Positions 585 through 18,975 of a stretch of DNA of 20,259 nt are shown here, piece after piece; within the stretch, counting starts at the first letter, position 1, and each line of letters begins with the position of its first letter. The notes under the pieces were generated by a model. The model saw nothing but the letters and a program-made list of their open reading frames with translations, was not told the origin of the DNA and did not search any database. Both the position numbers and the translations under genes were made by a program. The stretch lies in IMG/VR virus record IMGVR_UViG_2541047882_000008. One strand, given 5' to 3'. Source of the DNA: a virus (lineage: Duplodnaviria; Heunggongvirae; Uroviricota; Caudoviricetes).

Positions 585-645
585 TGGCGGAGAGAGGGGG
601 ATTTGAACCCCCGGTAGAGTTGCCCCTACTCCGGTTTTCGAGACC
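585..645 (-). other. Orphan 3' fragment (61 nt) of a tRNA-Ser(CGA)-like gene: anticodon stem-loop, long variable arm, T-arm and CCA end; 5' half absent
   Basis: Minus strand reads GGTCTCGAAAACCGGAGTAGGGGCAACTCTACCGGGGGTTCAAATCCCCCTCTCTCCGCCA, matching my recollection of the 3' part of E. coli serU; sequence upstream of the anticodon stem is unrelated, so no acceptor/D arm. Confidence 0.6.
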
Positions 646-1388
646 GATGATACAGAGTCGAAAAATCAAAGAGTTAAAAATTTTTCTTGGAATAAATGTC
701 TTTAAATCGTACACGAAAAATCAATGAATTACATAACATTAAAGAAGAATATTCCAAGCCTTCTTGAGGCTACCACCTGTTTTCAGGTGTCATTCAGACG
801 TGATTTGCCCCAGATTGGGAAAGCACGCTTTTTTCTCAGCTATCGTCCTCTTATTTTGCCGTTACATTTCTTTTTGCACTCTAATGATTAATTTACAATA
901 ATAATATCGGTAATTATTGAGTAATAATAAATTGATTATTGCAAATGTAATTTAATTCCATCTTAGCGTTATATTCCAATCTTTAATCTCCGCATGGAAC
1001 AAGTTGCATGCGTGACTATATTAAGACAACTTATAACCACCAAAACATTTGCTTTGCAAGCAAAAACAGTGACCATTGACTCTAAGAAAATTCCGATCTA
1101 TTGTTAGGGTCATCAAAGTTACTTAACAGTATTCCGAAATGAAAATACAAAGCAAGCTAATTGTCTTATTAAACATTATTATTGCATTTATATTATTTGA
1201 GCTTTTAGCTCAAAAATTTGGTTTGAGTACATTATTTTAAAGCAAGGTAAACAATATCGGGCACTCTAGTTTTTATAATTAACAATTAAACGTCCATAAA
1301 ATGTTATTTACTTTTCTTCGCTATTGTCACATCTTAATATAGTGGCTTACGCCACTCTACTTTCATCACATTTTGTACGTTTATGTAC

Positions 1389-1418
1389 TCGCCATGAAGC
1401 TCTTTCATGGCGATTTTT
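1389..1418 (+). terminator. Rho-independent terminator (10-bp perfect stem TCGCCATGAA/TTCATGGCGA, 5-nt loop, TTTTT)
   Basis: Perfect inverted repeat followed by a T-run on the + strand only; no U-tract on the - strand. Confidence 0.55.
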
Positions 1419-1504
1419 ATTCTTAATCCAAGAACATACTCCCTATCTATAGCAAAATCACTTTTTGAACAAAAGAATAACGTATTTAGGTAATCATTAC
1501 GAAT

Positions 1505-2086
1505 TTACCCTATAGGTGCTACTGGCCATTCAATATCCTGTGCAGTTGACGTATCAACACGGTTCAGCAATACCCGATACTTTTTCCAGGCTTCCAGCAA
1601 CAAGGTTTCTTCCTCCGTTGCGATTTCCAGATCCACAGCATCCTGAAGCGGCGCTATATGCTCACTGGCTACCTGCATCAGGCTGTTTTTTGTTTCTTCC
1701 ACCTCCCGGATCCGGAACAGTTTTTCTGCTTCCGTATCCTTCACCCAGGCTGTGCCGTTCCACTTCTGAAACTCCCCTTCCGGGGATAACCAGGTAACAT
1801 TTTCCGGTAATGAGCCGAGTTCAGAAATAAATAACGCGTCCCCTGATGCCACGTCATAAACTGTTTTACCCCGATGGTCTTCAACAAGATGCCACGATGA
1901 CTCATCACTGTTGAAAACAGCCACGAAGCCAGCCGGAATATCTGGCGGTGCAATATCGGTACTGTTTGCTGGCAGACCTGTATGAGGCGGAATATATGCA
2001 TCACCTTCACCAATAAATTCATTAGTTCCGGCCAGCAGATTATAAATTTTTATGGTCCGTGGTTGTTCACTCATTCTGAATGCCAT
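1505..2086 (-). CDS. tfa: Tail fibre assembly protein Tfa (193 aa)
   Basis: Translation [24 protein letters not shown]... matches lambda Tfa from memory; ATG overlaps the TAA of the out-of-frame stf C-terminal segment (TAATG). Confidence 0.85.
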
Positions 2087-2096
2087 TATGCAAGCC

Positions 2097-4031
2097 TCAC
2101 AATATAGTTAAATGCGATGTTTTTGACGGTGTTTTCCGCGTTACCAGCAGCGTTAACGGTGATGGTGTGTCCGTGTGAGCCAATCGCAACGGAGTGCGTA
2201 TGAGCACCAATACCGACAGTATGTGCATGTGCGCCTGCGCTTGCAGCAGTGCCGGACAGCGAGTGGGTACCCGACCATTCGCATTATCATTAGCTGCTTT
2301 CACTGCTTTCGGTGTCGCGGCAAGCGTTTCAGATGCGCTGTTGGTTGCACTACTGAGCTGGACAATTCCTTTTTGTGCTGTCGTAGCGTCCTGAGCAGTA
2401 TATTTCCCGTTAGCAAGGTCATAGGCTGCCTTTACCGACTTTGGCGTTGCCGCCAGCATTTCAGATGTGCTGTTGGTCGCGTTGCTAAGCTGAACTATCC
2501 CTTTCTGTGCTGTCGTTGCATCCTGTGCGGTGTATTTCCCGTTAGCCAGCTCATACGCGGCCTTAACGGCTTTTGGCGTTGCCGCCAGTGACTCGGAAGT
2601 GCTGTTAGTCGCACTGCTGAGCTGTACTATCCCCTTTTTCGTCGTGCTCGCATCCTCAAGCGCCACGGCGGATGCAATATCCTCTGCCCGTTTTGCTGCT
2701 GTCTCGGCGCGCGTTGCCGCGGATTCCGCCGTACTTTTGCTCTGAGCTGCCGCCGTCGCACTGCCAGCTGCCTCTGTCGCCTTCGTGGATGCCGTCGTGG
2801 CGCTGCCCTTCGCTGCTGACGCCTGTCTGGTCGCCTCATCTTTTGAAGCAGACGCCGATGATGCCGATGACGCCGCCGAACTGGCTGACGATGCGGCAGC
2901 CGTTTTTGAGGATTCTGCGCTGGTTTCCGACGCTTTCGCGTTCGTTTCGGATGTCTTCGCTGCGGAAGCTGACCTCGCTGCTGCCGTGGCCTGTTCAGTG
3001 GCTTCGCCAGCCTTCGTTGTGGCTGTTGAAGCGGATGATGCGGCGCTTTCTGCCGACTTTCCGGCAGCGGTGGCACTGGCTGAGGCCTGCCCGGCATTTG
3101 TTGACGCGGCGCTGGCAGATGAGGCAGCCGCTGTTTTTGAGTCTGCTGCTGCGGAGGCACTCTGTGCTGCTGCCGTCTCAGAAGACTTAGCGTTCGTCTC
3201 GGACGTTTTTGCCGCCTTCGCGGAATTTCCTGCCGCTGTTGCCGAGGAGGCTGCACTACTGGCGCTCGAGGCTGCGCTCGTTTCTGATGATTTTGCCGCC
3301 TCTTTTGAGGCCGCCGCATCCCGGGCTGAGGTGGCAGCTTCTGACGCCTTCGTGGTCGCGGCGGATGCAGAAGTGGCTGCTGATTGTTGTGACGCTGCCG
3401 CATTCGTTTCTGACGTTTTCGCCGCAGCGGCACTGGTAGCTGCCGCGCTTTTTGAGGACTCTGCAGCAGCAGCACTTTTCGATGCTTCACTGGCCTTTGT
3501 TGATGCCGTTCCTGCGCTGGAAGATGCTGACTGAGCAGATGATGCAGCCTGTCCGGCTGACGTGCTGGCGGCACGAGCTGAGCCTGCAGCATCGGTTGTA
3601 TGAGTTGCCGCCTCACTGGCAGATGTGCTGGCATCACTGGCTGACTTCTTCGCGGCTGCCGTGTTCTGTGCCACTGCGGACGCGTTACGCGCCACCTCTT
3701 CCACCATCAGTTCAAAACGGCGCAGAGCCTCCGGACGGGCATCATCCTCCGTCATGGCACCGAGAAAATCATTCAGCGTACCGGGTCGGGAATCTTCATA
3801 CACGGTGATGGTCCCGGCATGTGACGGCGGGAATCCTTCCACCAACAGAATAACGCTGTACTGACCGTACTCAACGTCCATGCTGTAACGCCCGGCTTCA
3901 TCCGGATTTTCTGAGGCCAGCGTGTTCACCACCACCGCGGTGCTGTTACGTTTTGCTTTCAGCTGGATTGTGCAGTTCTGTACCGGTTTTCCTGTGCCGT
4001 CTTTCAGTACACCTGAAATCTTTACTGCCAT
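2097..4031 (-). CDS. stf: Side tail fibre protein Stf, lambda-type N-terminus, Ala/Ser/Thr-rich shaft, collagen-like repeats; C-terminal ~62 codons are encoded in a different frame (frameshifted / internally deleted, probably non-functional)
   Basis: N-terminus [26 protein letters not shown] matches lambda Stf; last ~63 codons of this ORF are low-quality sequence, while the alternative frame from ~2273 to 2089 encodes [62 protein letters not shown], the canonical Stf C-terminus. Confidence 0.75.
2292..2636 (-). repeat. Tandem in-frame ~132-bp repeats (about 2.6 copies) inside stf, encoding [42 protein letters not shown]
   Basis: Three near-identical 44-aa units visible in the translation and as nucleotide repeats. 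Confidence 0.8.
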
Positions 4032-4041
4032 ATTCACCCCA

Positions 4042-4069
4042 CAAAAAAGCCCGCCTGAACCGGCGGGCT
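4042..4069 (-). terminator. Rho-independent terminator between lom remnant and stf (stem AGCCCGCC/GGCGGGCT, then TTTTTT on - strand)
   Basis: GC-rich hairpin followed by a 6-U tract on the - strand. Confidence 0.55.
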
Positions 4070-4095
4070 GTCATAACACTGTGTTACCTGGCTAA

Positions 4096-4365
4096 TCAGA
4101 ACTTATAACCGACACCCACGATGAAACCGTCAGTGCGCCAGTCGCCACTGCCGGAGCCTTCATAAGCAATATCAATGGCCACGGATTCGGTCGGGTTAAA
4201 CTGCACGCCAGCTCCCCACGCCAGAGACGTGTTGCTGTGGCGACCGTCATCACTTCCGGTCAGCACGTCGTGCGTTTTCCCCTTGTTGTCAGTTACGCGG
4301 AGATAATCCCCGGAGAAAGTCGACACACGGCTGTAAGCCACACCCGCCATCGCATACGCGCTGAA
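4096..4365 (-). pseudogene. lom: 3' remnant of lom (Ail/OmpX/Lom outer-membrane protein family); N-terminal part deleted at the junction with the ylcI region
   Basis: C-terminal translation ...YAMAGVAYSRVSTFSGDYLRVTDNKGKTHDVLTGSDDGRHSNTSLAWGAGVQFNPTESVAIDIAYEGSGSGDWRTDGFIVGVGYKF has the aromatic C-terminal beta-strand typical of Lom; upstream part of the ORF is unrelated and overlaps ylcI. Confidence 0.6.
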
Positions 4366-4369
4366 CCTC

Positions 4370-4564
4370 ATGTCAACGAAGAACAGAACCCGCAGAACAA
4401 CAACCCGCAACATCCGCTTTCCTAACCAAATGATTGAACAAATTAACATCGCTCTTGAGCAAAAAGGGTCCGGGAATTTCTCAGCCTGGGTCATTGAAGC
4501 CTGCCGTCGGAGACTAACGTCAGAAAAGAGAGCATATACATCAATTAAAAGTGATGAAGAATGA
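4370..4564 (+). CDS. ylcI: Small prophage protein YlcI-like (64 aa, DUF3950-type)
   Basis: Translation MSTKNRTRRTTTRNIRFPNQMIEQINIALEQKGSGNFSAWVIEACRRRL... recalled as DLP12 YlcI. Confidence 0.6.
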   Translation: MSTKNRTRRTTTRNIRFPNQMIEQINIALEQKGSGNFSAWVIEACRRRLTSEKRAYTSIKSDEE

Positions 4565-4728
4565 ACATCCCGCGTTCTTCCCTCCGAACAGGACGATATT
4601 GTAAATTCACTTAATTACGAGGGCATTGCAGTAATTGAGTTGCAGTTTTACCACTTTCCTGACAGTGACAGACTGCGTGTTGGCTCTGTCACAGGCTAAA
4701 TAGTTTGAATGATTAGCAGTTATGGTGA

Positions 4729-4935
4729 TCAGTCAACCACCAGGGAATAATCCTTCATATTATTATCGTGCTTCACCAACGCTGCCTCAATTGCTCTGAA
4801 TGCTTCCAGAGACACCTTATGTTCTATACATGCAATTACAACATCAGGGTAACTCATAGAAATGGTGCTATTAAGCATATTTTTTACACGAATCAGATCC
4901 ACGGAGGGATCATCAGCAGATTGTTCTTTATTCAT
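4729..4935 (-). CDS. ybcW: Small prophage protein YbcW-like (68 aa)
   Basis: 68-aa ORF in the position and orientation of DLP12 ybcW. Confidence 0.55.
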
Positions 4936-5220
4936 TTTGTCGCTCCATGCGCTTGCTCTTCATCTAGCGGTTAAAATATTACTTCAAATCTTTCTGTATG
5001 AAGATTTGAGCACGTTGGCCTTACATACATCTGTCGGTTGTATTTCCCTCCAGAATGCCAGCAGGACCGCACTTTGTTACGCAACCAATACTATTAAGTG
5101 AAAACATTCCTAATATTTGACATAAATCATCAACAAAACACAAAGAGGTCAGACCAGATTGAAACGATAAAAACGATAATGCAAACTACGCGCCCTCGTA
5201 TCACATGGAAGGTTTTACCA

Positions 5221-5631
5221 ATGGCTCAGGTTGCCATTTTTAAAGAAATATTCGATCAAGTGCGAAAAGATTTAAACTGTGAATTGTTTTATTCTGAACT
5301 AAAACGTCACAACGTCTCACATTATATTTACTATCTAGCCACAGATAATATTCACATCGTGTTAGAAAACGATAACACCGTGTTAATAAAAGGACTTAAA
5401 AAGGTTGTAAATGTTAAATTCTCAAGAAACACGCATCTTATAGAAACGTCCTATGATAGGTTGAAATCAAGAGAAATCACATTTCAGCAATACAGGGAAA
5501 ATCTTGCTAAAGCAGGAGTTTTCCGATGGGTTACAAATATCCATGAACATAAAAGATATTACTATACCTTTGATAATTCATTACTATTTACTGAGAGCAT
5601 TCAGAACACTACACAAATCTTTCCACGCTAA
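5221..5631 (+). CDS. ybcV: YbcV-like prophage protein (136 aa from the internal Met; ORF track starts upstream at 5098)
   Basis: Translation [43 protein letters not shown]... recalled as DLP12 YbcV. Confidence 0.6.
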
Positions 5632-5921
5632 ATCATAACGTCCGGTTTCTTCCGTGTCAGCACCGGGGCGTTGGCATAATGCAATACGTGTACGCGCTAA
5701 ACCCTGTGTGCATCGTTTTTAATTATTCCCGGACACTCCCGCAGAGAAGTTCCCCGTCAGGGCTGTGGACATAGTTAATCCGGGAATACAATGACGATTC
5801 ATCGCACCTGACATACATTAATAAATATTAACAATATGAAATTTCAACTCATTGTTTAGGGTTTGTTTAATTTTCTACACATACGATTCTGCGAACTTCA
5901 AAAAGCATCGGGAATAACACC

Positions 5922-6215
5922 ATGAAAAAAATGCTACTCGCTACTGCGCTGGCCCTGCTTATTACAGGATGTGCTCAACAGACGTTTACTGTTCAAAACA
6001 AACCGGCAGCAGTAGCACCAAAGGAAACCATCACCCATCATTTCTTCGTTTCTGGAATTGGGCAGAAGAAAACTGTCGATGCAGCCAAAATTTGTGGCGG
6101 CGCAGAAAATGTTGTTAAAACAGAAACCCAGCAAACATTCGTAAATGGATTGCTCGGTTTTATTACTTTAGGCATTTATACTCCGCTGGAAGCGCGTGTG
6201 TATTGCTCACAATAA
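5922..6215 (+). CDS. bor: Bor lipoprotein (serum-resistance-associated outer membrane lipoprotein, 97 aa)
   Basis: Signal peptide plus lipobox LITGC; sequence and length match lambda Bor; placed opposite to the lysis genes as in lambda. Confidence 0.8.
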   Translation: MKKMLLATALALLITGCAQQTFTVQNKPAAVAPKETITHHFFVSGIGQKKTVDAAKICGGAENVVKTETQQTFVNGLLGFITLGIYTPLEARVYCSQ

Positions 6216-6246
6216 TTGCATGAGTTGCCCATCGATATGGGCAACT

Positions 6247-6708
6247 CTATCTGCACTGCTCATTAATATACTTCTGGGTTCCTTCCAGTTGTTTTTGCAT
6301 AGTGATCAGCCTCTCTCTGAGGGTGAAATAATCCCGTTCAGCGGTGTCTGCCAGTCGGGGGGAGGCTGCATTATCCACGCCGGAGGCGGTGGTGGCTTCA
6401 CGCACTGACTGACAGACTGCTTTGATGTGCAACCGACGACGACCAGCGGCAACATCATCACGCAGAGCATCATTTTCAGCTTTCGCATCAGCTAACTCCT
6501 TCGTGTATTTTGCATCGAGCGCAGCAACATCACGCTGACGCATCTGCATGTCAGTAATTGCCGCGTTCGCCAGCTTCAGTTCTCTGGCATTTTTGTCGCG
6601 CTGGGCTTTGTAGGTAATGGCGTTATCACGGTAATGATTAACAGCCCATGACAGGTAGACGATGATGCAGATAACCAGAGCGGAGATAATCGCGGTTACT
6701 CTGTTCAT
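6247..6708 (-). CDS. Rz: Spanin inner-membrane subunit Rz (i-spanin)
   Basis: N-terminal TM segment, coiled-coil body; Rz1 embedded in +1 frame; follows the endolysin gene. Confidence 0.8.
6306..6488 (-). CDS. Rz1: Spanin outer-membrane lipoprotein Rz1 (o-spanin), fully embedded within Rz in another frame
   Basis: 60-aa ORF with lipobox VVGC and proline-rich mature region, nested in Rz. Confidence 0.7.
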
Positions 6709-7202
6709 TGCTGACCCCACAAACAGATTTCACGCTCAATCTCACGACGAGTCATGAGACCTTTCCATTGCTTACCGCCAGCATATGTCCAGCGACGTAG
6801 CTGATCACATGCGCCTTTGATATCGCCCTGGTTTATTTTGCGAAGAAGCGTCGATGTTCTGAAATTGCCAGCACCCACGTTGTAAACGAATGAGTAAAGA
6901 GCGCCGCGCGTTGTTTCCGGTATATCGACTTTGATGTACGGGTTAATTTGTCTGGCGACAGTGGCAAGGTCTTTATTCAAGAGTGCTTTGCATTCTGCTT
7001 TGGTATACGTTTTACCGAGCATGATGTCTTTTCCGGTGTGTCCGTGACATACAGTCCATACGCCAACGATATCTTTGTATGGTACGTAGCTGACACCTTC
7101 CAGACCATCGTTACCACTTGGGCCAGTAATTAACACTGATGCTATAGCAATTGCTCCGCCACCAATAGCAGCAGCAACGGCTTTTCGTAATGATGGAGGC
7201 AT
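6705..7202 (-). CDS. R: Endolysin R, lysozyme family, with N-terminal signal-anchor-release (SAR) hydrophobic segment (phage 21 / DLP12 RrrD type)
   Basis: Gly/Ala-rich weakly hydrophobic N-terminus [18 protein letters not shown] followed by a lysozyme-like body; ATGA overlap with the S stop. Confidence 0.8.
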
Positions 7203-7417
7203 TATTCACCTCTCGCAGCCTTGCGCTTATCTTCTTTAATCTTGAAATAAAGGTTTGTCAGGTACGTCAGCAGGCCAAATACCAGGCTACCCAGCACACC
7301 TATTGCTGCCCACTGTGAGGGCGTGACTTTATCGAGCAGCTGTAAAAACCAGTAACCGGCACTACCTGCTGAGGTGCCATAGGCGACACCCGTTGTTAAC
7401 TTATCCATGGATTTCAT
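7202..7417 (-). CDS. S: Holin S of the phage-21 pinholin type, with dual-start motif MKSM (antiholin Met1 / holin Met4); ORF track extends to 7462 via a non-ATG start
   Basis: Translation [71 protein letters not shown] closely resembles S21 / EssD. Confidence 0.8.
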
Positions 7418-7544
7418 AACCCCACCTCGCAGACAAAGCGGGTGTAAATTGAGGGAATACAACGTATCGCAAAAAAGCAGAAACGTAACAGACTCGGAGT
7501 CAGTGAATAACTCAGGTATTGGGTTATCAGCTAATATCGAGACT

Positions 7545-7575
7545 CAAAAAATGGAAAAACCCGCTCGACGGCGGG
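7545..7575 (-). terminator. Rho-independent terminator upstream of S on the late-gene strand; candidate tR'-like terminator
   Basis: Hairpin CCCGC-TCGACG-GCGGG followed on the - strand by a U-rich tract (TTTTTCCATTTTTT). Confidence 0.45.
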
Positions 7576-8004
7576 TTTAAGCTGTGTGACGAAGTAACCA
7601 CTCTTAACAGCATAACCAATTTTTTACGTACGTAAACCACTAAATGATATTTGCGAGAATGCTACCGAGTATTGAAAACACCACTACAAATACATAAGCA
7701 AATCTCAACAAATAACCAACAAATAATTTCCAGCGTTATTTTTAGCTGGTTTAAATTGAATCTTCAAATTATAGAGCACTTATAAATAACAGCCATTAAT
7801 ATAAATTGGCTAATAGATTTATTTTTATTCAGCCAAGAGCCATGAATAGGATTCGATAGAAAAAGTTCAGATAAAAATAGAGATCTACTTCACAAATCAA
7901 ATGAGAAACCAAAACTTACATCTTGAAATAATCACATTGATTAGATGAATATTTATCGCGCAGTGACATCATTTTTTAATAATAGTTCAAAAAAAGGGCT
8001 CACG

Positions 8005-9087: not shown

Positions 9088-9102
9088 TTTGATTACTAAA
9101 AG

Positions 9103-9250: not shown

Positions 9251-9275
9251 TAATTTTTAGTAAACAATTGGCATA

Positions 9276-9659: not shown

Positions 9660-9744
9660 CAACTTACTCCACAAAAATCAGACCAGAACGCCAATTACAA
9701 GCAAAAATCAATAAAACAGTATTAGTTGATTGTTATCTCTGACT

Positions 9745-11149: not shown

Positions 11150-11339
11150 GCTTCACCTCCGCAGAGGTCAGACGCTGGATGCAAAAAATCGCAGGTGCAT
11201 TTCTGCATCTGTGAAGGGAGAAGAGAGTTTGGATTGTATGTGCGCATAAACGTCCCCGTTTAGCGCAGAAGTCACCGGAGTTGTTCAAGCTCCGATGACT
11301 TTATTATTACGAATTGATTTTACAAAATCAAAAGGTATG

Positions 11340-11792: not shown

Positions 11793-12349
11793 TTAGCTAC
11801 CCTAACAGGAAACATTGGACGAGAAAGATCAACACTTTCTAATGCTTGCAAGAACTGCGTTATGTTGTTTTGCACCGCGCGATTAACAGATTCGCGTGCT
11901 CGAACAATACCGTAGAATGCGTAACTGGCTGGAACAGTACCGGTAGACTCAATATCCTGCGTATATATAATATCACCATTCGCACGGTTGATTATTTCAT
12001 ACCTTGCAATTGCTTTAGTTGTCATTGAAACACCAAAAGCAGGAACGTCAAGAGCCAACACTTTAACATTTAAGCTAACCGTATTTGGTGAACTATCACG
12101 AAAAATAGTCATTCGGTCGAGTGCTTCCTGCAAAGATTCACGCCAAATTGGAGTTATAGCCTCCATACCAGCAGTGATATCCCCTTTCTGCTCATCTGGA
12201 CGAGCAAGTGATACCGTTAATGACTTAATTTCAGCATCTATTTTTTTCTGGCTAACTCCCACGTTAGGTGTTGAAAAATTCAATGGTGGCACACTAGCGC
12301 AACCTGTTAAAGAACCAATAATCATGGCTAATAATATTATCTTCTTCAT
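11789..12349 (-). CDS. Lipoprotein of unknown function (186 aa), translationally coupled (ATGA overlap) to the downstream SlyB-like gene
   Basis: Signal peptide MKKIILLAMIIGSLTGC with lipobox; AT-rich codon usage; 4-nt overlap with the next gene. Confidence 0.6.
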   Translation of the reverse strand: MKKIILLAMIIGSLTGCASVPPLNFSTPNVGVSQKKIDAEIKSLTVSLARPDEQKGDITAGMEAITPIWRESLQEALDRMTIFRDSSPNTVSLNVKVLALDVPAFGVSMTTKAIARYEIINRANGDIIYTQDIESTGTVPASYAFYGIVRARESVNRAVQNNITQFLQALESVDLSRPMFPVRVAK

Positions 12350-12605
12350 AAATTTACCTTATTGTTATAACCAAAGGAATTATAAAGTAAAAAAGTTCAC
12401 TATCACTAGCCATTAACGACATCAATTTCAGAGAAACATGGTACTCATTTCCACAAATTTGACACAAGTCATTTTCACCTACATATTCCATCATACTTGA
12501 TGCATATGTTATTGAAGCCTCTATCCTATCCGTTCATAATAGCAATAGTTACCCGGGTGATAGTACCTCTATGATTACTCGTCTTTCTGATTGATTGGAT
12601 TAAAT

Positions 12606-12797
12606 ATGCGCGCCAAAATTTATCAACTTTCGTTATGGATATTTATTTCGTTTCTAGCGATCTATGCCTTTATTATCTATAAAGGTTCTTATATTGGAGT
12701 AGCATTGCATCAAATTGCTTGGATCATCATTATTGCCTCTGGCTTGATTGCTAGGCTAACTAAACCAAAGCAAAAACCAATTTCGTCCAATAATTAG
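12606..12797 (+). CDS. Putative small membrane protein with two predicted TM helices (63 aa from the ATG; ORF track starts at a TTG at 12591)
   Basis: Two hydrophobic stretches (LSLWIFISFLAIYAFIIY, IAWIIIIASGLIA); AT-rich; weak ribosome-binding site, so coding status uncertain. Confidence 0.3.
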   Translation: MRAKIYQLSLWIFISFLAIYAFIIYKGSYIGVALHQIAWIIIIASGLIARLTKPKQKPISSNN

Positions 12798-12956
12798 ACA
12801 TGTATTAAAAAAATGATATTTTTATGTACATAGTCTATTGAAAATTGCCGCGATAAAATGCCAACACCCGCTTCATCGCGGCACTCTGGCGACACTCCTT
12901 GAAAATCAGATTCGTGCTCACCTTTCCTTCCCGTTCTTCCCTGGTAGCGAACCGGT

Positions 12957-13403
12957 AATCATCCGATCTGCGTTACCGAGTGGATGGATGAATGCCGCCG
13001 CGAACCATTCAAAACCCGCGAAGGCAGAGAAATTACGGGGCCGTGGCAGTCGCATCCCAAACGGATGTTACGGCATAAAGCCATGATTCAGTGTGCCCGT
13101 CTGGCCTTCGGATTTGCTGGTATCTATGACAAGGATGAAGCCGAGCGCATTGTCGAAAATACCGCATACACCGCAGAACGTCAGCCGGAACGCGACATTA
13201 CTCCGGTTAACGATGAAACCATGCAGGAGATTAACACTCTGCTGATTGCCCTGGACAAAACATGGGATGACGACTTATTGCCGCTCTGTTCCCAGATATT
13301 TCGCCGCGACATTCGCGCATCGTCAGAACTGACACAGGCCGAAGCAGTGAAAGCTCTTGGATTCCTGAAACAGAAAGCCACTGAGCAGAAGGTGGCAGCA
13401 TGA
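12957..13403 (+). pseudogene. bet: 5'-truncated bet (lambda Red-beta recombinase), only about the C-terminal 148 codons present
   Basis: Translation ...NHPICVTEWMDECRREPFKTREGREITGPWQSHPKRMLRHKAMIQCARLAFGF...[11 protein letters not shown] matches the lambda Bet C-terminus; upstream sequence unrelated and no in-frame start for the N-terminal domain. Confidence 0.8.
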
Positions 13404-14080
13404 CACCGGACATTATCCTGCAGCGTACCGGGATCGACGTGAGAGCTGTCGAACAGGGGGATGATGCATGGCACAAATTACGGCTCGGCGTCATCACCGC
13501 TTCAGAAGTTCACAACGTGATAGCCAAGCCCCGCTCAGGAAAGAAGTGGCCTGACATGAAAATGTCCTACTTCCACACCCTGCTGGCTGAGGTTTGCACC
13601 GGTGTGGCTCCGGAAGTTAATGCTAAGGCGCTGGCATGGGGAAAACAGTACGAGAACGACGCCAGAACCCTGTTTGAATTCACTTCCGGCGTGAATGTTA
13701 CTGAATCCCCGATCATCTATCGCGACGAAAGTATGCGCACCGCCTGCTCTCCCGATGGTTTATGCAGTGACGGCAATGGCCTTGAGCTGAAATGCCCGTT
13801 TACCTCCCGGGATTTCATGAAGTTCCGGCTCGGTGGTTTCGAGGCCATAAAGTCGGCTTACATGGCCCAGGTGCAGTACAGCATGTGGGTGACACGAAAA
13901 GATGCCTGGTACTTTGCCAACTATGACCCGCGTATGAAGCGTGAAGGACTGCATTATGTCGTGGTTGAGCGGGATGAAAAGTACATGGCGAGTTTTGACG
14001 AGATGGTGCCGGTGTTCATCGAAAAAATGGACGAGGCACTGGCTGAAATTGGTTTTGTATTTGGGGAGCAATGGCGATGA
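13400..14080 (+). CDS. exo: Lambda exonuclease Exo (Red-alpha, 226 aa)
   Basis: Translation [54 protein letters not shown]... essentially lambda Exo; ATGA overlap with bet. Confidence 0.9.
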
Positions 14081-14259
14081 CGCATCCTCACGATAATATC
14101 CGGGTAGGCGCAATCACTTTCGTCTACTCCGTTACAAAGCGAGGCTGGGTATTTCCCGGCCTTTCTGTTATCCGAAATCCACTGAAAGCACAGCGGCTGG
14201 CTGAGGAGATAAATAATAAACGAGGGGCTGTATGCACAAAGCATCTCCTGTTGAGTTAA
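14077..14259 (+). CDS. Lambda orf60a-like protein (60 aa)
   Basis: 60-aa ORF immediately after exo, overlapping orf63 by 28 nt as in lambda. Confidence 0.6.
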
Positions 14260-14423
14260 GAACGAGTATTGAGATGGCACATAGCCTTGCTCAAATTGGA
14301 ATCAGGTTTGTGCCAATACCAGTAGAAACAGACGAAGAATTTCATACGTTAGCCACATCCCTTTCACAAAAACTGGAAATGATGGTGGCGAAAGCAGAAG
14401 CAGATGAGAGAGACCAGGTATGA
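14232..14423 (+). CDS. Lambda orf63-like protein (63 aa)
   Basis: 63-aa [66 protein letters not shown] in the lambda orf63 position. Confidence 0.6.
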   Translation: MHKASPVELRTSIEMAHSLAQIGIRFVPIPVETDEEFHTLATSLSQKLEMMVAKAEADERDQV

Positions 14424-14499
14424 CAACCACTGAATGCATTTTTCTGGCAGCGGGCTTCATATTCTGTGTGCTTATGCTTGCCGACATGGGGCTTGTTCA

Positions 14500-14715
14500 G
14501 TGACACCTCAGCAGGAAAACGCCCTTCGCAGCATTGCCCGTCAGGCTAATTCTGAAATCAAAAAAGCCAGACAGCAGTTTCCGGATAAAAACGTCGATGA
14601 CATTTGCCGTAGCGTACTGAAGAAGCACCGCGAAACGGTAACGCTGATGGGATTCACACCGACTCATTTAAGTCTAGCAATCGGCATGTTAAACGGCGTT
14701 TTTAAGGAACGGTGA
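14500..14715 (+). CDS. Hypothetical early-left-operon protein (71 aa from in-frame GTG; start uncertain)
   Basis: Open frame in the lambda orf61 region; GTG overlaps the stop of a 27-codon hydrophobic mini-ORF (14420-14503). Confidence 0.35.
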   Translation: MTPQQENALRSIARQANSEIKKARQQFPDKNVDDICRSVLKKHRETVTLMGFTPTHLSLAIGMLNGVFKER

Positions 14716-14813
14716 ACATGAAAAGCAAAATCATCAGGGAGCTACAGGCTCCTTTTTTATTATTCGCATTCACCCTCAAGCGTATTAACCAACAATTCAG
14801 GGATTAATGAAAG

Positions 14814-15035
14814 ATGGCAGACATCATTGATTCAGCATCAGAAATTGAAGAATTACAGCGCAACACAGCAATAAAAATGCGCCGCCTGAACCACCAGGCT
14901 ATATCTGCCACTCATTGTTGTGAGTGTGGCGATCCGATAGATGAACGAAGACGCCTGGCCGTTCAGGGTTGTCGGACTTGTGCAAGTTGCCAGGAGGATC
15001 TGGAACTTATCAGTAAACAGAGAGGTTCGAAGTGA
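14814..15035 (+). CDS. TraR/DksA-type C4 zinc-finger protein (lambda Orf73-like, 73 aa)
   Basis: Motif CCECGDPIDERRRLAVQGCRTCASCQ, typical of phage TraR-like RNA polymerase-binding proteins. Confidence 0.7.
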   Translation: MADIIDSASEIEELQRNTAIKMRRLNHQAISATHCCECGDPIDERRRLAVQGCRTCASCQEDLELISKQRGSK

Positions 15036-15283
15036 GCGTAATTCACTCTCAGGCACTGCGTGAAGCGGCAGAGCAGGCAATGCATGACAACTGGGGATTT
15101 GACGCGGACCTTTTCCATGAGCTGGTAACACCATCGATTGTGCTGACACTGCTGGATGAACGGGAAAGAAACCAGCAGTACATCAAACGCCGCGACCAGG
15201 AGAACGAGGATATTGCGCTAACGGTGAGGAAACTGCGTGTTGAGCTGGAGACAGCAAAAATCAAAACTCAACGAGCAGCGTGA
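15032..15283 (+). CDS. ea22: Ea22-like protein, N-terminal 83 codons ending at an in-frame TGA; the same frame stays open for 53 further codons to a TAG at 15443-15445
   Basis: N-terminus resembles my recollection of lambda Ea22 (QALREAAEQAMHD..WGFDADLFHELVTPSIVL); Ea22-like sequence (EGVISDGSKRIA) continues in frame after the TGA. Confidence 0.5.
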   Translation: MSVIHSQALREAAEQAMHDNWGFDADLFHELVTPSIVLTLLDERERNQQYIKRRDQENEDIALTVRKLRVELETAKIKTQRAA

Positions 15284-15581
15284 GTAGAAGGTGTTATCTC
15301 GGATGGAAGTAAGCGTATTGCTGAACTGGAGGCCTGGGTTGAATACACAAGAGCTGCATACGTAAGAGCAAAAGACAAGGGAGATTTGATCAGAGTTATT
15401 ACCCGACAACCAACGGGATTTTACGCTTACGTACCATGTAATTAGGAATCCTTGAAGTGGCAGCCTAACTGCGGATACACTGAAATGGCGATTTGGTAAC
15501 ATGTTTCGCACAAGGCTGTTACTACGCTTAAAGATAATCAGCCATGATTAAACGCTTTGTAAAAAGTAAAAGGAAATTACA

Positions 15582-16196
15582 ATGAAAAAATCAATACTAA
15601 TTTTAGGGCTTACGTTAATTGTCTCATCTCAAATACCATCGGCAATGGCAAAAAATGAATCAAGACTTTGGGTTGTTGTTGATCGAACGGAAAGACATAC
15701 CTGCCCTTCAAGTAAATGTGGAGTGGCTGGGAAACTATTTTTCAGGGAAGGCGTAGATTTTCTAGAAAAAAAAGGTGAATGGGTTCGTATAACTGAGCCA
15801 TATTCAGCCTCATGTGTGGGAGGGGAAAGCGAATATATTAAAGAAGGTAATAAATCCTGCACAAGAAAAAACGGAATCGTCAATGGCAAGTTTTCAGAAT
15901 GGGTTAAACTTAGTGATCTTAGCAGTGAAAGGCCATCAGATCCTGCTGAAAATGCGAGCGGAGATGATACTTTAATCAAAGGATCTGATGACTACCGTAT
16001 ATACAAAAAAGAGTTTTCTTCGGCAGCTAGGAAGTTAATAAACGAAGGGGTCTGCACGGAAAGCGACTTTAAGGAAATCGGAGGGTGGATGGCATCAAGC
16101 AATAAGGGGAAAAACATCTATTTCACATATTGCGGAGGAATGACGTTGTCGAACAGAATATACCTAGACGTTAAAAGTGGAAAGACTTTTAGATAA
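15582..16196 (+). CDS. Secreted cysteine-containing protein of unknown function (204 aa), AT-rich moron
   Basis: N-terminal signal peptide MKKSILILGLTLIVSSQIPSAMA; six Cys in the mature part; marked drop in GC content; followed by a terminator. Confidence 0.6.
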   Translation: MKKSILILGLTLIVSSQIPSAMAKNESRLWVVVDRTERHTCPSSKCGVAGKLFFREGVDFLEKKGEWVRITEPYSASCVGGESEYIKEGNKSCTRKNGIVNGKFSEWVKLSDLSSERPSDPAENASGDDTLIKGSDDYRIYKKEFSSAARKLINEGVCTESDFKEIGGWMASSNKGKNIYFTYCGGMTLSNRIYLDVKSGKTFR

Positions 16197-16267
16197 TATG
16201 ATATTACCAATGACAGTATTAATTTAATGCCTCCATAGAATTATCTCTAGGAAGTATGTATAAGAAA

Positions 16268-16302
16268 AGCCCGCACAATGAGCTGCTGCGGGCTTTGTGT
16301 TA
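16268..16302 (+). terminator. Rho-independent terminator after the secreted-protein gene (stem AGCCCGCA/TGCGGGCT then TTTGTGTT)
   Basis: GC-rich inverted repeat followed by a T-rich tract. Confidence 0.5.
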
Positions 16303-16489
16303 TTCGCCATATTTTATGAAGCAAATACGACACTATAGATAATTAAGCGTTGCTGGTTGTCGATTCCTCACTCACTCCTGTTGATGGCTCTCTTCTTGTA
16401 TGTGCCATTGAAGGGTAATATCGAGTAAAAAGATACCGGAAGTATCCGCGCCGCCATGATTGTCTTTCTCCTAATGCAGGAAAAGCAGA

Positions 16490-16609
16490 ATGGCTAAATC
16501 ATCAGCAGAGCGCAAAGTCGATCAGAGAGCCAAGCAAGCATCATCCGGTATGCGTAAGCTGGAGCTTGTACTTGATGCTCAGGAAATTGAAATGCTGGAT
16601 CGTAACTGA
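16490..16609 (+). CDS. Small ORF (39 aa) with a good ribosome-binding site, ending at TGA; same frame stays open 72 more codons (to 16826) and encodes a zinc-ribbon-like motif
   Basis: AGGAAA 6 nt before ATG; downstream in-frame segment contains C-x2-C-x9-C-x-C (RCGKCGERVPVNSCPCNG) but no ATG (an in-frame GTG exists). Confidence 0.35.
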   Translation: MAKSSAERKVDQRAKQASSGMRKLELVLDAQEIEMLDRN

Positions 16610-16856
16610 GCCACGCGCCGCTTCAGGCATGCGCCTTACGAGTTTGGTGAGTACATCGCGTTACTGAGCCGCCAGGATGATGCACGTGTGCGCTGGCGTA
16701 TAAAATCGATCAGCAGAAAACGTTGCGGTAAGTGCGGCGAGAGAGTTCCTGTTAATTCATGCCCGTGTAATGGTGACTCACAATGCTGGGTGACCAAAGG
16801 CTGGCACGAAACAAAATTAATGATATAAATCTCTGTGACATGTCACGGAGGCGGCA

Positions 16857-17285
16857 ATGAAATTAGACCAGCAATATCTAAAAGATCTACTTATCGCATT
16901 CGAAAAAACTCATGGCCCTGACACGATGCTTAGTGAACTAGAGGATAATGGCTTTAATAGATATGACCAAAATTTTATTTTCCATATGCGATTATTATGC
17001 GACTACGAATTAATAGTCAGGGTTGATGGAAAACCTGGGTTCGGTCATATAATGTCCAACGAGTTAGGGGAAGGTGTTGGATATAGTTGGATCGAAGTAC
17101 CACTGAGGTTGACAGCAAGAGGGCATGATTTTATTGCTGACTTGCGTCAAAAGGAGGTCTGGCAAACTATAAAAACAAACTTTAAGGATGAGGGAATTAG
17201 TACACTAATAAGTGTTTCAAAATCACTAGCAAAAGGCTTTGCAAGGAAAAAGATAAAAGATATTACAGGAATAGATATTGAATAA
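16857..17285 (+). CDS. Hypothetical protein (142 aa), AT-rich, occupying the slot of lambda ea8.5
   Basis: Clean ORF with ribosome-binding site GGAGG upstream, low GC, followed by a terminator. Confidence 0.55.
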   Translation: MKLDQQYLKDLLIAFEKTHGPDTMLSELEDNGFNRYDQNFIFHMRLLCDYELIVRVDGKPGFGHIMSNELGEGVGYSWIEVPLRLTARGHDFIADLRQKEVWQTIKTNFKDEGISTLISVSKSLAKGFARKKIKDITGIDIE

Positions 17286-17329
17286 TTCTTAGCATCAGCA
17301 ACTACTGCCTTTGGTGGAAATTATATCTG

Positions 17330-17354
17330 AACTCGCTACGGCGAGTTTTGTTTT
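17330..17354 (+). terminator. Rho-independent terminator (AACTCGC-TACG-GCGAGTT then TTTTGTTTT)
   Basis: 7-bp stem, 4-nt loop, T-rich tail directly after the 142-aa gene. Confidence 0.6.
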
Positions 17355-17367
17355 ATGGAGATGATAA

Positions 17368-17535
17368 ATGCACTTCCGAGTCACAGGTGAATGGAATGGA
17401 GAACCATTCAACAGAGTTATCGAAGCAGAGAACATCAATGACTGCTATGACCACTGGATGATATGGGCGCAGATAGCACATGCAGACATAACCAATATTC
17501 GAATTGAAGAACTGAAAGAACACCAAGCCGCCTGA
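17368..17535 (+). CDS. Lambda orf55-like small protein (55 aa)
   Basis: Manual translation MHFRVTGEWNGEPFNRVIEAENINDCYDHWMIWAQIAHADITNIRIEELKEHQAA; size and position (just upstream of xis) as lambda orf55. Confidence 0.5.
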   Translation: MHFRVTGEWNGEPFNRVIEAENINDCYDHWMIWAQIAHADITNIRIEELKEHQAA

Positions 17536-17548
17536 TGGCGGTTTTTTC
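17527..17548 (+). terminator. Candidate rho-independent terminator between orf55 and xis (CCGCC-TGAT-GGCGG then TTTTTTC)
   Basis: Short GC stem with a 6-T run; the orf55 stop codon lies in the loop. Confidence 0.45.
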
Positions 17549-17574
17549 TTGCGTGTAATTGCGGAGACTTTGCG

Positions 17575-17793
17575 ATGTACTTGACACTTCAGGAGTGGAA
17601 CGCTCGCCAGCGACGCCCAAGAAGCCTTGAAACAGTTCGTCGATGGGTGCGCGAATGCAGGATATTCCCTCCTCCGGTTAAGGATGGAAGAGAATATCTG
17701 TTCCACGAATCAGCGGTAAAGGTTGACTTAAATCGACCAGTAACAGGTAGCCTTTTGAAGAGGATCAGAAATGGGAAGAAGGCGAAGTCATGA
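17575..17793 (+). CDS. xis: Excisionase Xis (72 aa), lambda type
   Basis: Translation MYLTLQEWNARQRRPRSLETVRRWVRECRIFPPPVKDGREYLFHESAVKVDLNRP... matches lambda Xis; overlaps int start. Confidence 0.9.
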   Translation: MYLTLQEWNARQRRPRSLETVRRWVRECRIFPPPVKDGREYLFHESAVKVDLNRPVTGSLLKRIRNGKKAKS

Positions 17794-18841
17794 GCGCCGG
17801 GATTTACCCCCTAACCTTTATATAAGAAACAATGGATATTACTGCTACAGGGACCCAAGGACGGGTAAAGAGTTTGGATTAGGCCGAGACAGGCGAATCG
17901 CAATCACTGAAGCTATACAGGCCAACATTGAGTTATTTTCAGGACACAAACACAAGCCTCTGACAGCGAGAATCAACAGTGATAATTCCGTTACGTTACA
18001 TTCATGGCTTGATCGCTACGAAAAAATCCTGGCCAGCAGAGGAATCAAGCAGAAGACACTCATAAATTACATGAGCAAAATTAAAGCAATAAGGAGGGGT
18101 CTGCCTGATGCTCCACTTGAAGACATCACCACAAAAGAAATTGCGGCAATGCTCAATGGATACATAGACGAGGGAAAGGCGGCATCAGCCAAGTTAATCA
18201 GATCAACACTGAGCGATGCATTCCGAGAGGCTATGGCTGAAGGCCATATAACAACAAACCCGGTCGCAGCCACTCGCGCTGCAAAATCAGAGGTAAGGAG
18301 ATCAAGACTTACGGCTGACGAATACCTGAAAATTTATCAAGCAGCAGAATCATCACCATGTTGGCTTAGACTTGCAATGGAACTGGCTGTTGTTACCGGG
18401 CAGCGAGTTGGTGATTTATGCGAAATGAAGTGGTCTGATATCGTAGATGGATATCTTTATGTCGAGCAAAGCAAAACAGGCGTAAAAATTGCCATCCCAA
18501 CAACATTGCATGTTGATGCTCTCGGGATATCAATGAAGGAAACACTTGATAAATGCAAAAAGATTCTTGGCGGAGAAACCATAATTGCATCTACTCGTCG
18601 TGAACCGCTTTCATCCGGCACAGTATCAAGGTATTTTATGCGCGCACGAAAAGCATCAGGTCTCTCCTTCGAAGGGGATCCGCCAACCTTTCACGAGTTG
18701 CGCAGTTTGTCTGCAAGACTCTATGAGAAGCAGATAAGCGATAAATTTGCTCAACATCTTCTCGGGCATAAGTCGGACACCATGGCATCACAGTATCGTG
18801 ATGACAGAGGCAGGGAGTGGGACAAAATTGAAATCAAATAA
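17771..18841 (+). CDS. int: Tyrosine integrase Int (356 aa), essentially lambda Int
   Basis: Translation MGRRRSHERRDLPPNLYIRNNGYYCYRDPRTGKEFGLGRDRRIAITEAIQANIELFSGHKHKPL... through ...HLLGHKSDTMASQYRDDRGREWDKIEIK matches lambda Int from memory, including catalytic R-K-H-R-H-Y region. Confidence 0.95.
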   Translation: MGRRRSHERRDLPPNLYIRNNGYYCYRDPRTGKEFGLGRDRRIAITEAIQANIELFSGHKHKPLTARINSDNSVTLHSWLDRYEKILASRGIKQKTLINYMSKIKAIRRGLPDAPLEDITTKEIAAMLNGYIDEGKAASAKLIRSTLSDAFREAMAEGHITTNPVAATRAAKSEVRRSRLTADEYLKIYQAAESSPCWLRLAMELAVVTGQRVGDLCEMKWSDIVDGYLYVEQSKTGVKIAIPTTLHVDALGISMKETLDKCKKILGGETIIASTRREPLSSGTVSRYFMRARKASGLSFEGDPPTFHELRSLSARLYEKQISDKFAQHLLGHKSDTMASQYRDDRGREWDKIEIK

Positions 18842-18940
18842 TGATTTTATTTTGACTGATAGTGACCTGTTCGTTGCAACAAATTGATAAGCAATGCTTT
18901 TTTATAATGCCAACTTAGTATAAAAAAGCAGGCTTCAACG
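18842..18940. other. attL (B-O-P'): lambda P' arm with Int arm-type/IHF sites, 15-bp core TTAGTATAAAAAAGC at 18915-18929, then bacterial B arm
   Basis: Sequence 18842-18914 is the reverse complement of the lambda attP P' arm as I recall it; core followed by AGGCT matches the attB side. Confidence 0.85.
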
Positions 18941-18975
18941 GATTCATTTTTCTATTTCATAGCCCGGAGCAACCT

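Follow-up and report, generated by a model that had tools for sequence, protein, structure and literature searches.

Lambda qsr' hybrids are viable phages that arose through recombination with DLP12, a prophage of Escherichia coli K-12, and that unite lambda-family arms with its type of Q-porin-lysis block. In K-12 the SRRz/Rz1 operon of DLP12 is intact; its Q-type antiterminator, RpoE and Hha control it, and growth falls when further copies of this lysis operon are present (PMC7918800). The element described here is an ordinary dead lambda-family prophage, in the state long familiar from K-12 DLP12. It was analysed in a stretch of 20,259 nucleotides (the window, from whose first letter positions are counted), has a size of ~20.7 kb and occupies the lambda attachment site in the ybhC/ybhB interval.

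Results

The flank of the attL core (Table 1) is 100% identical to K-12 attB; ybhC (18976-20259) adjoins the core, and positions 18911-20259 are 99.9% identical to the K-12 attB region. The attR core lies outside the window, ~1.75 kb to the left of its start (L001 1244-1258, where window position 1 is L001 3001), matches in 14 of 15 positions and, in the window's own lineage, adjoins ybhB. A degenerate att-like site at 67-81 was considered as attR and rejected, the true attR being left of the window. Position 585 had initially been taken as the boundary of the element; however, phage ev099 and the TUM1887 prophage are homologous to the window from its position 1 on, and to the left of the window the prophage goes on with an AraC-family gene, IS remnants and attR. 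Lambda-type Int and Xis beside the 15-bp core, with ybhC on one side and ybhB on the other, identify a lambdoid prophage at attB-lambda.

Table 1. Features of the prophage, in window coordinates; aa, amino acid identity.
Feature	Position	Strand	Closest match or basis
AT-rich b-region-like prophage DNA	1-1504		98.9% vs phage ev099 25209-23705; 99.1% vs TUM1887 prophage
tfa, tail fibre assembly protein, intact	1505-2086	-	92.7% aa vs lambda Tfa, 95.9% vs ev099; Pfam Caudo_TAP
stf side tail fibre pseudogene, ~587 N-terminal codons, then frameshifted tail	2097-4031	-	Translation
Joint A, inside stf	2266-2269		1018-bp deletion; GGTA microhomology; frameshifts stf
lom', C-terminal fragment, Lom/Ail outer-membrane protein	4096-4367	-	Matches lom of ev099 and TUM1887
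Joint B, lom'/ylcI	4364-4367		1057-bp deletion; AACC microhomology; ends 5 bp before ylcI ATG
ylcI; ybcW; ybcV; bor	4370-4564; 4729-4935; 5221-5631; 5922-6215	+; -; +; +	99-100% aa vs lambda and DLP12
Lysis cassette, all intact: Rz; Rz1; R SAR endolysin; S pinholin	6247-6708; 6306-6488; 6705-7202; 7202-7417	-
S-to-porin intergenic region, expected late promoter site	7418-8004	-	95.7% vs DLP12 SRRz promoter fragment region, 93.5% vs ev099
Candidate intrinsic terminator (tR'-like), upstream of S	7557-7578	-	8-bp GC-rich stem and U tract; shuffle z-score not significant
Porin moron (NmpC/OmpD-like), intact, antisense to late operon	8005-9087	+	Pfam Porin_1
Q antiterminator, QuuD type, intact	9276-9659	-	127/127 identical to DLP12 QuuD; Pfam PF06530, E=3.5e-53
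nin region: ylcG, rusA, ybcO, ninE, ybcN, ylcH, all open	9745-11247	-	88-100% aa vs DLP12; Pfam RusA, YbcO, NinE
Two lipoprotein-like moron genes (150 aa, 186 aa)	11340-12349	-	PHROG 13877 and 12521, function unknown
ren', C-terminal 40 codons	12835-12957	-	Matches lambda 40449-40548
Joint C, bet'/ren'	12955-12959		Lambda 32473 joined to 40449 (bet codon ~113 to ren); GTAAT microhomology
bet' (truncated), exo, orf60a, orf63, 71-aa ORF, TraR/DksA-like gene	12957-15035	+	95-100% aa vs lambda
Decayed ea-region substitution: ea22 fragment, 204-aa secreted protein, two pseudogenes, DUF2513 protein, orf55	15080-17535	+
xis; int, both intact	17575-17793; 17771-18841	+	98.6% aa vs lambda Xis and Int
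attL common core	18915-18929		GCTTTTTTATACTAA; exact 15/15 match to lambda att core

Two stretches of the arm from bet' to int are close to lambda DNA (12955-15330, 97.1%; 17320-18929, 97.9%), and protein identity to lambda was 98.6% for Int, 98.6% for Xis, 98.2% for Exo and 99.3% over the C-terminal 148 aa of Bet. These values of 98-99% agree with the initial annotation, which had called the four genes near-identical to lambda. The ea-region pseudogenes carry that annotation in relatives too, PHROG and Pfam matches in this region were to families of unknown function only, and a PADLOC scan found no defence systems in the ea region or among the unknown morons.

Compared to K-12 DLP12, DNA identity was 95.6% over 4364-9029 and 96.9% over 9046-11333, and protein identity was 100% for Q, S and NinE, 99% for YbcO, 98.8% for R, 98.3% for RusA and 94% for YbcN. 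The porin was 90.5% identical in amino acids to K-12 NmpC and 98% to the ev099 porin (98-100% across ev099 and TUM1887), and the lipoprotein-like morons, which are absent from lambda and DLP12, were 99-100% identical in TUM1887. The order is that of a DLP12-type Q-lysis module, namely Q of the QuuD type, an oppositely oriented porin and then essD-rrrD-rzpD/rzoD-bor. The proposal that Q, the lysis genes, the porin and the ybcN-ylcI genes are all DLP12-like was sustained for Q, S and R, whereas the part from Rz to ylcI is nearer to lambda: window 4364-6708 (Rz, bor, ybcV, ybcW, ylcI) is 99.66% identical in DNA to lambda 48309-45966, cf. 95.6% for DLP12. Q had also been called phage-21-type but is of the QuuD type, with a remote likeness only to the Q21 structures (PDB 6P18 and 6JNX; E=7.6e-7 over 80 of 127 residues; lengths 127 vs 162 aa).

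The 71-aa S protein starts with MKSMDK (dual start MKSM), matches Pfam Phage_holin_2_1 and is 100% identical to EssD, while R is 98.8% identical to RrrD and matched the solved chains 4ZPU and 3HDE at E ~1e-111 (residues 1-165 for 3HDE, E=3.7e-111), the latter being R21. S and R have the features of a phage 21-type pinholin and SAR endolysin, and Rz1 matches Pfam PF06085. The retained late genes are all open, at 96-100% identity to homologues that are functional or characterised, in keeping with the earlier description of a retained Q and a complete lysis cassette; Q is intact and the cassette comprises S, R, Rz and Rz1.

Neither lambda 1-19457 (Nu1 to J) nor lambda 32474-40448 (gam to P) had a match anywhere in the window, as expected from the reported absence of the terminase-to-J and immunity/replication blocks. 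Repressor and operator, N, O, P, cos, terminase, head and tail genes are absent and stf is frameshifted; the element is thus defective, as had been stated, in that it can neither form particles nor maintain repression by itself. Scars had been placed near 12940-12960 (bet) and 4360-4380 (lom/ylcI), and both are real (joints C and B), but the term "doubly deleted" is an undercount, since there are three illegitimate joints as well as the ea-region pseudogenes. The third, joint A, maps to the point where window 1-2269 (L001 3001-5269) meets window 2266-4367 (L001 6284-8385). In the relative PEC1009, stf is intact with 988 codons. The frameshifted Stf product had no exact sequence match on record, and the lom'-fusion open reading frame had one. 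Joint B removed the rest of lom', nohD' (Nu1) and cos, window 4364 being lambda 48309, 193 bp short of cos; in relatives, lom' is annotated as truncated Ail/Lom.

Joint C was identical in 18 complete E. coli genomes and was kept in 6 more with a further deletion (at least 24 in total). Its carriers differ in their morphogenesis deletions, which include lom'/nohD' in PEC1009, stf'/A' in A14 and NCTC9087, and others. Joints A and B were absent from 5426 complete RefSeq genomes, and the exact 39-mer at joint B had no match in GTDB species-representative genomes. Both joints were contiguous in at least nine independent draft contigs at 99.8-100% identity, and joint A was present in draft assemblies L007-L012; the assemblies that carry the element include GCA_012548255.1 and GCA_012632105.1.

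Rearrangement endpoints recurred at two places, with three independent rearrangements ending at GGTA^CC inside stf (2266-2270) and three others at GCGTA^CC at the start of exo (13423-13429). A GTA-containing microhomology was seen at 5 of 12 mapped joints, all on the same strand, against an expectation of ~0.5%. No IS elements were found at the stf hot spot in relatives, in which IS insertions lie elsewhere, and comparison of the hot-spot sequence with the invertase (gix/pix) and lambda Int core consensus sequences gave no convincing match.

The fuller prophage of E. coli strain TUM1887, at the same site, has the same modules in colinear order (int/exo/bet arm, QuuD-type Q, porin, S21-type lysis genes, lambda-type stf/tfa), with proteins 98-100% identical on both arms and with immunity and replication genes between the arms; over the ylcI-to-ren stretch DNA identity was 98.9%, and from bet onward it was 98.1%. 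The plaque-forming phage ev099 (NC_049953) also has a colinear module order, and the segments retained in the window are colinear with lambda, ev099 and TUM1887 (int-xis-red ... nin-Q-lysis ... tail fibre-b region). Because TUM1887 and ev099 are colinear, 12955-12959 is a deletion joint within one ancestral genome and not a lambda x DLP12 crossover. The mosaic, called chimeric in the initial annotation, is therefore nothing special to this element; colinearity with a single known intact phage, which that annotation had named as evidence against its view, is seen in part in the order of ev099 and TUM1887.

The late promoter expected between S and the porin was not located by a sigma-70 consensus scan, and Rfam contained no late-leader or regulatory RNA family matching the window, its sole match being IS009 inside tfa. 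On the minus strand from joint C to 13500, no promoter was found by consensus scanning. A promoter-like site on the minus strand at 12406-12379, before the lipoprotein moron, is aimed at the nin genes and Q, and no strong terminator was predicted between this site and Q; some read-through from it into nin-Q may occur.

Discussion

We consider, with a probability of roughly 85%, that the window holds a cryptic, non-inducible and non-packageable lambdoid prophage that stems from one mosaic ancestor, was eroded stepwise and has kept its lysis genes unpowered. The ancestor would have been one natural lambdoid phage that was mosaic beforehand, with int/xis/red, the right end and stf/tfa of lambda type, Q of the QuuD type, lysis genes of the S21 type and a porin moron. 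The first step would have been one illegitimate deletion at the 5-bp microhomology of joint C, from mid-bet to ren, which would have taken gam, kil, cIII, N, pL, the repressor, pR, cro, cII, O and P and disarmed induction, replication and N-dependent expression. Joint C is placed earliest because it is common to many strains, and parsimony over the 12 sampled relatives suggests that this immunity deletion preceded the others. Later, the morphogenesis genes were probably lost through separate deletions in different sublineages, and in the window's lineage joints B and A would have taken away nohD' and cos together with what was left of lom' and a portion of stf.

To the question, raised in the initial annotation, of how expression of lethal late genes is prevented, the conventional answer seems to apply, given the deletion of pR, pL, N, nutR, cro and cII and the precedent of DLP12 (PMC7918800). 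Q has no known promoter because the deletion took pR, pL, N and nutR. The nin-Q operon would have lost both its sole known promoter, pR, and its antiterminator, N/nutR, and with Q scarce or absent, late-promoter transcripts would halt at the terminator upstream of S. Silence of Q is the likely explanation for the tolerance of the late genes, a state that would be the same as that of DLP12 in K-12. That such a block works when driven follows from the viability of the lab phage 434B, which carries a DLP12 Q-nmpC::IS5-lysis block.

A tentative proposal, compatible with stepwise erosion, is that the nin-Q-porin-lysis-bor arm was kept by selection for host benefit. The 12 relatives compared show 12 later deletions, each located either in the tail/morphogenesis remnant or in the arm from bet' to int, and the 8.6-kb ylcI-to-ren' arm has no deletions and just two IS insertions and one ninE nonsense mutation. 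The benefits proposed are the porin, Bor serum resistance, RusA, and a part in vesicle release or in turnover of the envelope, as has been suggested for DLP12, whose lysis genes affect vesicle production in K-12 (PMC7918800). However, the sample is small and phylogenetically non-independent, the divergence of ~0.03% is too low for a dN/dS test, the skew becomes no more than borderline once the larger morphogenesis region of the ancestor is taken as the deletion target, and partial deletions near lysis genes may simply be lethal.

It appears unlikely that a sequence- and strand-specific breaking or joining activity, and not plain replication slippage, drives prophage erosion in this lineage. 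The candidates under this unlikely reading would be a type II topoisomerase, a site-specific recombinase acting on pseudo-sites or a single-strand transposase-like nickase; one description of the gyrase cleavage motif gives it as very degenerate (PMC6379681). If confirmed, the recurrence of endpoints at GTA/GTACC would indicate that deletions in E. coli prophages form by a specific mechanism.

We give very little credence to an origin in situ, by which a lambda-like prophage took its nin-Q-lysis block from a resident DLP12 (or phage 21), a view largely refuted by the colinear relatives. Such exchange is known, as 434B has an annotated crossover in ylcG, and the identity of the Q and S proteins to those of DLP12 would fit it, but the DNA of the block is 3-4.4% diverged from K-12 DLP12, its porin resembles those of ev099 and TUM1887 more closely than NmpC, the lipoprotein moron and ren-proximal spacer are missing in DLP12 and found in TUM1887, the Rz-to-ylcI part is nearer to lambda, and joint C links two points that lie in colinear order across lambda, ev099 and TUM1887. 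That joints A and B are assembly collapses in a repetitive tail-fibre region can practically be discounted: stf does contain 132-bp repeats and the complete genomes lack both joints, but the exact joints recur in those nine or more contigs, from separate NCBI assemblies and up to 211 kb long, and each lies in unique sequence, at a 4-bp microhomology, rather than linking repeat units.

On the reading of one mosaic ancestor eroded stepwise, the element adds one well-resolved example of the path from temperate phage to harmless passenger, in which one deletion puts an end to killing and induction and is followed by piecemeal erosion of the structural genes. What persists is a promoterless lysis cassette along with morons of use to the host (porin, Bor, RusA), and the many strains at different stages are a convenient natural series for work on prophage decay.

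Among known systems, the TUM1887 prophage shares the site, the module order, the AraC gene and the IS remnants; unlike in the window, immunity, O/P and gam-to-N persist in it and in ev099, as do terminase, head and tail genes, although the TUM1887 prophage has partial morphogenesis deletions of its own. Lab phage 434B likewise joins lambda-family arms to a DLP12-type Q-porin-lysis block, but it is viable and its nmpC is disrupted by IS5, whereas the block of the window is not the K-12 allele. The lambda*B prophage of E. coli B REL606 is also defective and lies at the ybhC-ybhB site with lambda-type Int and Xis, but its remainder is unrelated (P22-like terminase, acyltransferases) and includes no QuuD-porin-lysis block (PMC3032704); it was rejected as the same element on this other gene content beyond Int/Xis. 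Lambda itself shares the attachment site, att core and prophage gene order, and its Rz, bor and right end are 99.7% identical in DNA, but its Q, S, R and nin region are different, it has no porin, and its immunity, replication and morphogenesis regions are complete. DLP12 (qsr') shares the order ylcH-ybcN-ninE-ybcO-rusA-ylcG-quuD, the porin, essD-rrrD-rzpD/rzoD, bor, ybcV, ybcW and ylcI and, like the window, no longer has an immunity/replication region that works; its lysis cassette is nonetheless functional (PMC7918800). It lies at argU with intD and its nmpC is broken by IS5, whereas the window's prophage lies at attB-lambda with lambda-type int, xis, exo and bet', an intact porin and an extra lipoprotein moron upstream of ybcN.

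Extent and integration site of the element

Parts of the window were found in all 5426 complete E. coli genomes by whole-window megablast, but only 22 of them contained 80% or more of it at a single locus. The best match, strain PEC1009, was 100% identical but carried two extra segments. The flank at the lambda att core matched K-12 attB exactly. The left end of the window was still prophage, as positions 1–1504 were 98.9% identical to the b-region of the plaque-forming lambdoid phage ev099 and 99.1% identical to the prophage of E. coli strain TUM1887. In the window's own lineage, ~1.75 kb more of the element lay to the left (an AraC-family gene, IS remnants and attR, which has a 14/15 core match and adjoins ybhB), giving a whole element of ~20.7 kb. 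Position 585, where the initial annotation began the element, is therefore no meaningful boundary. An att-core-like GGTTTTTTATACTGA in the b-region (window 67–81, 13/15 match) is probably due to chance and was rejected as a prophage boundary.

Features of the window and rearrangements of related prophages (L-numbers are related loci; L001 is the PEC1009 locus, in which window position 1 is 3001)
Feature	Position	Remark
ybhC, host gene	18976–20259	Right end of window
Perfect lambda att core	18915–18929	Just before ybhC
Candidate terminator hairpin and U tract	7557–7578	Upstream of S; predicted
ea22 fragment and two further pseudogenes		ea region
GTA-enrichment joints	Window 2266–2269, 12955–12959; L001 6285–6287, 19713–19716; L006 11785–11790, 16025–16035	
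PEC1009, EC416		lom' joined to nohD'
A14, NCTC9087, NCTC9104, RM10410, MS 124-1		stf' joined to truncated terminase gene; full nohD
23CRST021, BR1220	L001 6288–6560 and 7806–8695	Deleted
NCTC9040	L001 8126–9009	Deleted
Window		Joints A and B

Three deletion joints

The joints were placed by alignment to lambda and close relatives, and the lambda-like and DLP12-like stretches were measured by alignment to lambda and K-12 DLP12. The scars noted earlier at about 12940–12960 (bet) and about 4360–4380 (lom/ylcI) mapped to 12955–12959 (joint C) and 4364–4367 (joint B); the element had been called doubly deleted, which was right for these two but overlooked a third joint in stf (joint A, 2266–2269). 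Joint C fused lambda 32473 in bet to lambda 40449 in ren at a 5-bp microhomology (GTAAT), with a loss of ~8 kb in lambda terms that comprised the N-terminal 112 codons of bet, gam, kil, cIII, N, pL, the repressor, pR, cro, cII, O, P and most of ren, in agreement with the reported absence of the immunity/replication region. At joint B (AACC microhomology), the C-terminal 90 codons of lom were fused to a point 193 bp short of cos, with the ylcI start codon 5 bp further on. PEC1009 retains the 1057 bp lost here, which comprise the remainder of lom', nohD' (the Nu1 homologue) and cos. Joint A (GGTA microhomology) removed 1018 bp from stf and shifted its frame, such that the last 56 codons are out of frame. 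An Rfam scan of the window returned nothing besides an IS009 match (218 bits) within the tfa coding region (1545–1743, minus strand).

The initial annotation had also proposed checking other strains for the same architecture. A 401-bp probe showed joint C intact in 18 complete genomes at ≥99.8% identity, and 6 further complete genomes kept it with a second deletion ~95 bp to the right (window 12979–13422) that removed the first exo codons along with most of the bet remnant. Hosts included chicken, opossum, pig, goose, wild bird and humans, and several carriers were NCTC collection strains. None of the 5426 complete E. coli genomes searched matched probes spanning joint A or joint B. An ORF spanning joint B was found by exact-protein lookup in at least 9 draft contigs belonging to separate NCBI assemblies, and these aligned contiguously with the window through joints A and B at 99.8–100% identity. 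The architecture is real and belongs to a sublineage without a representative among complete genomes.

Origin of the mosaic

The lambda-like arm was 97.1% (12955–15330) and 97.9% (17320–18929) identical to lambda DNA, and the claim that int, xis, exo and bet are near-identical to lambda held at the protein level (Int and Xis 98.6%, Exo 98.2%, the 148-residue Bet remnant 99.3%). Between these stretches, lambda ea22/ea8.5 were replaced by genes for a 204-aa signal-peptide protein (PHROG 8310; 15582–16196) and a DUF2513 protein (16857–17285), flanked by pseudogene fragments. Neither protein matched any defence-system model; overall, the uncharacterised genes of the window matched only phage families of unknown function, with no defence-system match.

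Identity to K-12 DLP12 was 95.6% over 4364–9029 and 96.9% over 9046–11333. The DLP12-like character assigned to Q, the lysis cassette, the porin and ybcN–ylcI was borne out for Q (127/127), S (71/71), NinE (100%), YbcO (99%), R (98.8%), RusA (98.3%) and YbcN (94%), but not for Rz to ylcI, as 4364–6708 (Rz, bor, ybcV, ybcW, ylcI) was closer to lambda (99.66%). The label 'phage-21-type' suited the lysis genes: S begins with the dual-start motif MKSM, and R matched the solved structures of RrrD (4ZPU) and of a phage-21-type endolysin (3HDE) over its full length (E about 1e-111). It did not suit Q, which is QuuD-type (Pfam PF06530) with only a remote match to solved Q21 structures (E=7.6e-7 over 80 residues). 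With S, R, Rz and Rz1 (inside Rz) all present, the lysis cassette is complete and, as had been stated, is retained together with Q. The porin is intact and 90.5% identical to NmpC. A two-gene lipoprotein/glycine-zipper moron of unknown function (11340–12349, minus strand; PHROG 12521 and 13877), missing from lambda and DLP12, lies between ren and the nin genes, apparently with its own promoter directed at Q.

The initial annotation interpreted this as a chimera of a lambda-type arm joined to a DLP12-type block. Recombination with DLP12 can yield such hybrids: the deposited phage 434 laboratory stock (434B, OL657227.1, L023 24278–27869) carries the K-12 DLP12 Q-nmpC::IS5-lysis block with an annotated crossover in ylcG, evidently acquired from the host cryptic prophage. 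However, the window's block has diverged 3–4% from K-12 DLP12, contains the lipoprotein moron that DLP12 lacks, and has a porin of the ev099/TUM1887 type (98–100% identical). The TUM1887 prophage is inserted at the same site, shares the AraC gene and IS remnants of the element, and matches the window at 98.9% across ylcI–ren and at 98.1% from bet on. The region separating these arms contains ren, P, O, a repressor/cro pair and gam; nohD, terminase, portal, J and full lom are also present. The module order of ev099 is likewise that of the window (lambda-type int/xis/red, QuuD-type Q, porin, S21-type lysis genes, lambda-type stf/tfa). From this shared order, the mosaic is the native genome of one phage lineage, in which joint C is an internal deletion rather than a lambda x DLP12 crossover.

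Order of decay and recurrent endpoints

Joint C was common to all sampled relatives, and the structural region differed among them. The stf'/A' and lom'/nohD' types each keep sequence missing from the other; their common ancestor therefore carried joint C with far more of the morphogenesis region still present. The most parsimonious history would be deletion of the immunity region first, followed by independent erosion of the structural region. Judging from established lambda biology, a lysogen would be able to survive induction once a single event had removed kil, N, O and P.

Across 12 related prophages (L001 and L013–L022 among the loci), every one of the 12 secondary deletions lay either in the tail remnant or in the bet'-to-int arm. 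The ylcI-to-ren' arm (4370–12957: Q, porin, lysis, bor, nin) had none, which in this small, non-independent sample suggests either selection or that partial deletions there are lethal. In MS 124-1, an ISEc52 element lies directly upstream of rusA (L021 11058–12226, window about 9885), reminiscent of K-12, where IS insertions switch on the silent DLP12 rusA.

Three different rearrangements end at L001 6284–6288 (AGAAGGTA^CCCGACC, window 2266–2270): joint A (leftward), the stf'/A' joint (rightward) and the 273-bp deletion of 23CRST021 (rightward). Three others end at the exo start (L001 18498–18506, CAGCGTA^CCGGGATC, window 13423–13431), in NCTC9087 (leftward), A14 (rightward) and 23CRST021 (rightward). 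GTA-containing microhomology occurred in 5 of 12 mapped joints (GGTA, GTA, CGGTAT, GTAA, GTAAT) and TAC in none; the expectation of GTA for random junctions with microhomology of similar length is ~0.5% (binomial P ~2e-9, motif chosen post hoc). The 22.7-kb PEC1009 prophage has only seven copies of GTACC(C/G)G. Of the three internal deletions in the independent TUM1887 prophage, two likewise have their break after GTA or TTA (GGGTA^, CGTTA^). An endpoint that stays constant while its partners vary on either side resembles a site-specific break, or the action of a candidate recombinase on pseudo-sites.

Tolerance of Q and the lysis genes

In lambda-family phages, the only known promoter of Q is pR, from which transcription requires N-mediated antitermination through nin-region terminators. 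pR, N and nutR lay inside the segment deleted at joint C, where the two remaining arms meet back to back and diverge, and a consensus scan of the bet remnant found no minus-strand promoter reading into ren'. The promoter/antiterminator region is thus missing while the late genes are intact, and we infer that Q is silent. Without Q, late-promoter transcripts would stop at the candidate terminator upstream of S; the S-to-porin intergenic region was 94–96% identical to its DLP12 and ev099 counterparts. A promoter-like site before the lipoprotein moron (12406–12379) is directed at Q with no strong terminator predicted in between; it is presumably harmless, because the repressed TUM1887 prophage has the same arrangement. 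In K-12, the SRRz/Rz1 operon of DLP12 is intact and under a Q-type antiterminator, RpoE and Hha, with extra copies being deleterious (PMC7918800). DLP12, whose Q and S proteins are identical to those of the window, is the direct precedent.

Comparison with known elements

Overall, the initial observation was confirmed with corrections and its interpretation partly supported; the element is an ordinary one, and no published description of it was found in the literature searched. It works like DLP12 and is an additional member of the cryptic lambdoid prophages. It is distinct from DLP12 itself, from which it differs in site, integrase, porin state and moron content, and from lambda*B, the defective prophage listed at ybhC–ybhB in E. 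coli B (PMC3032704), with which it has only int/xis in common.
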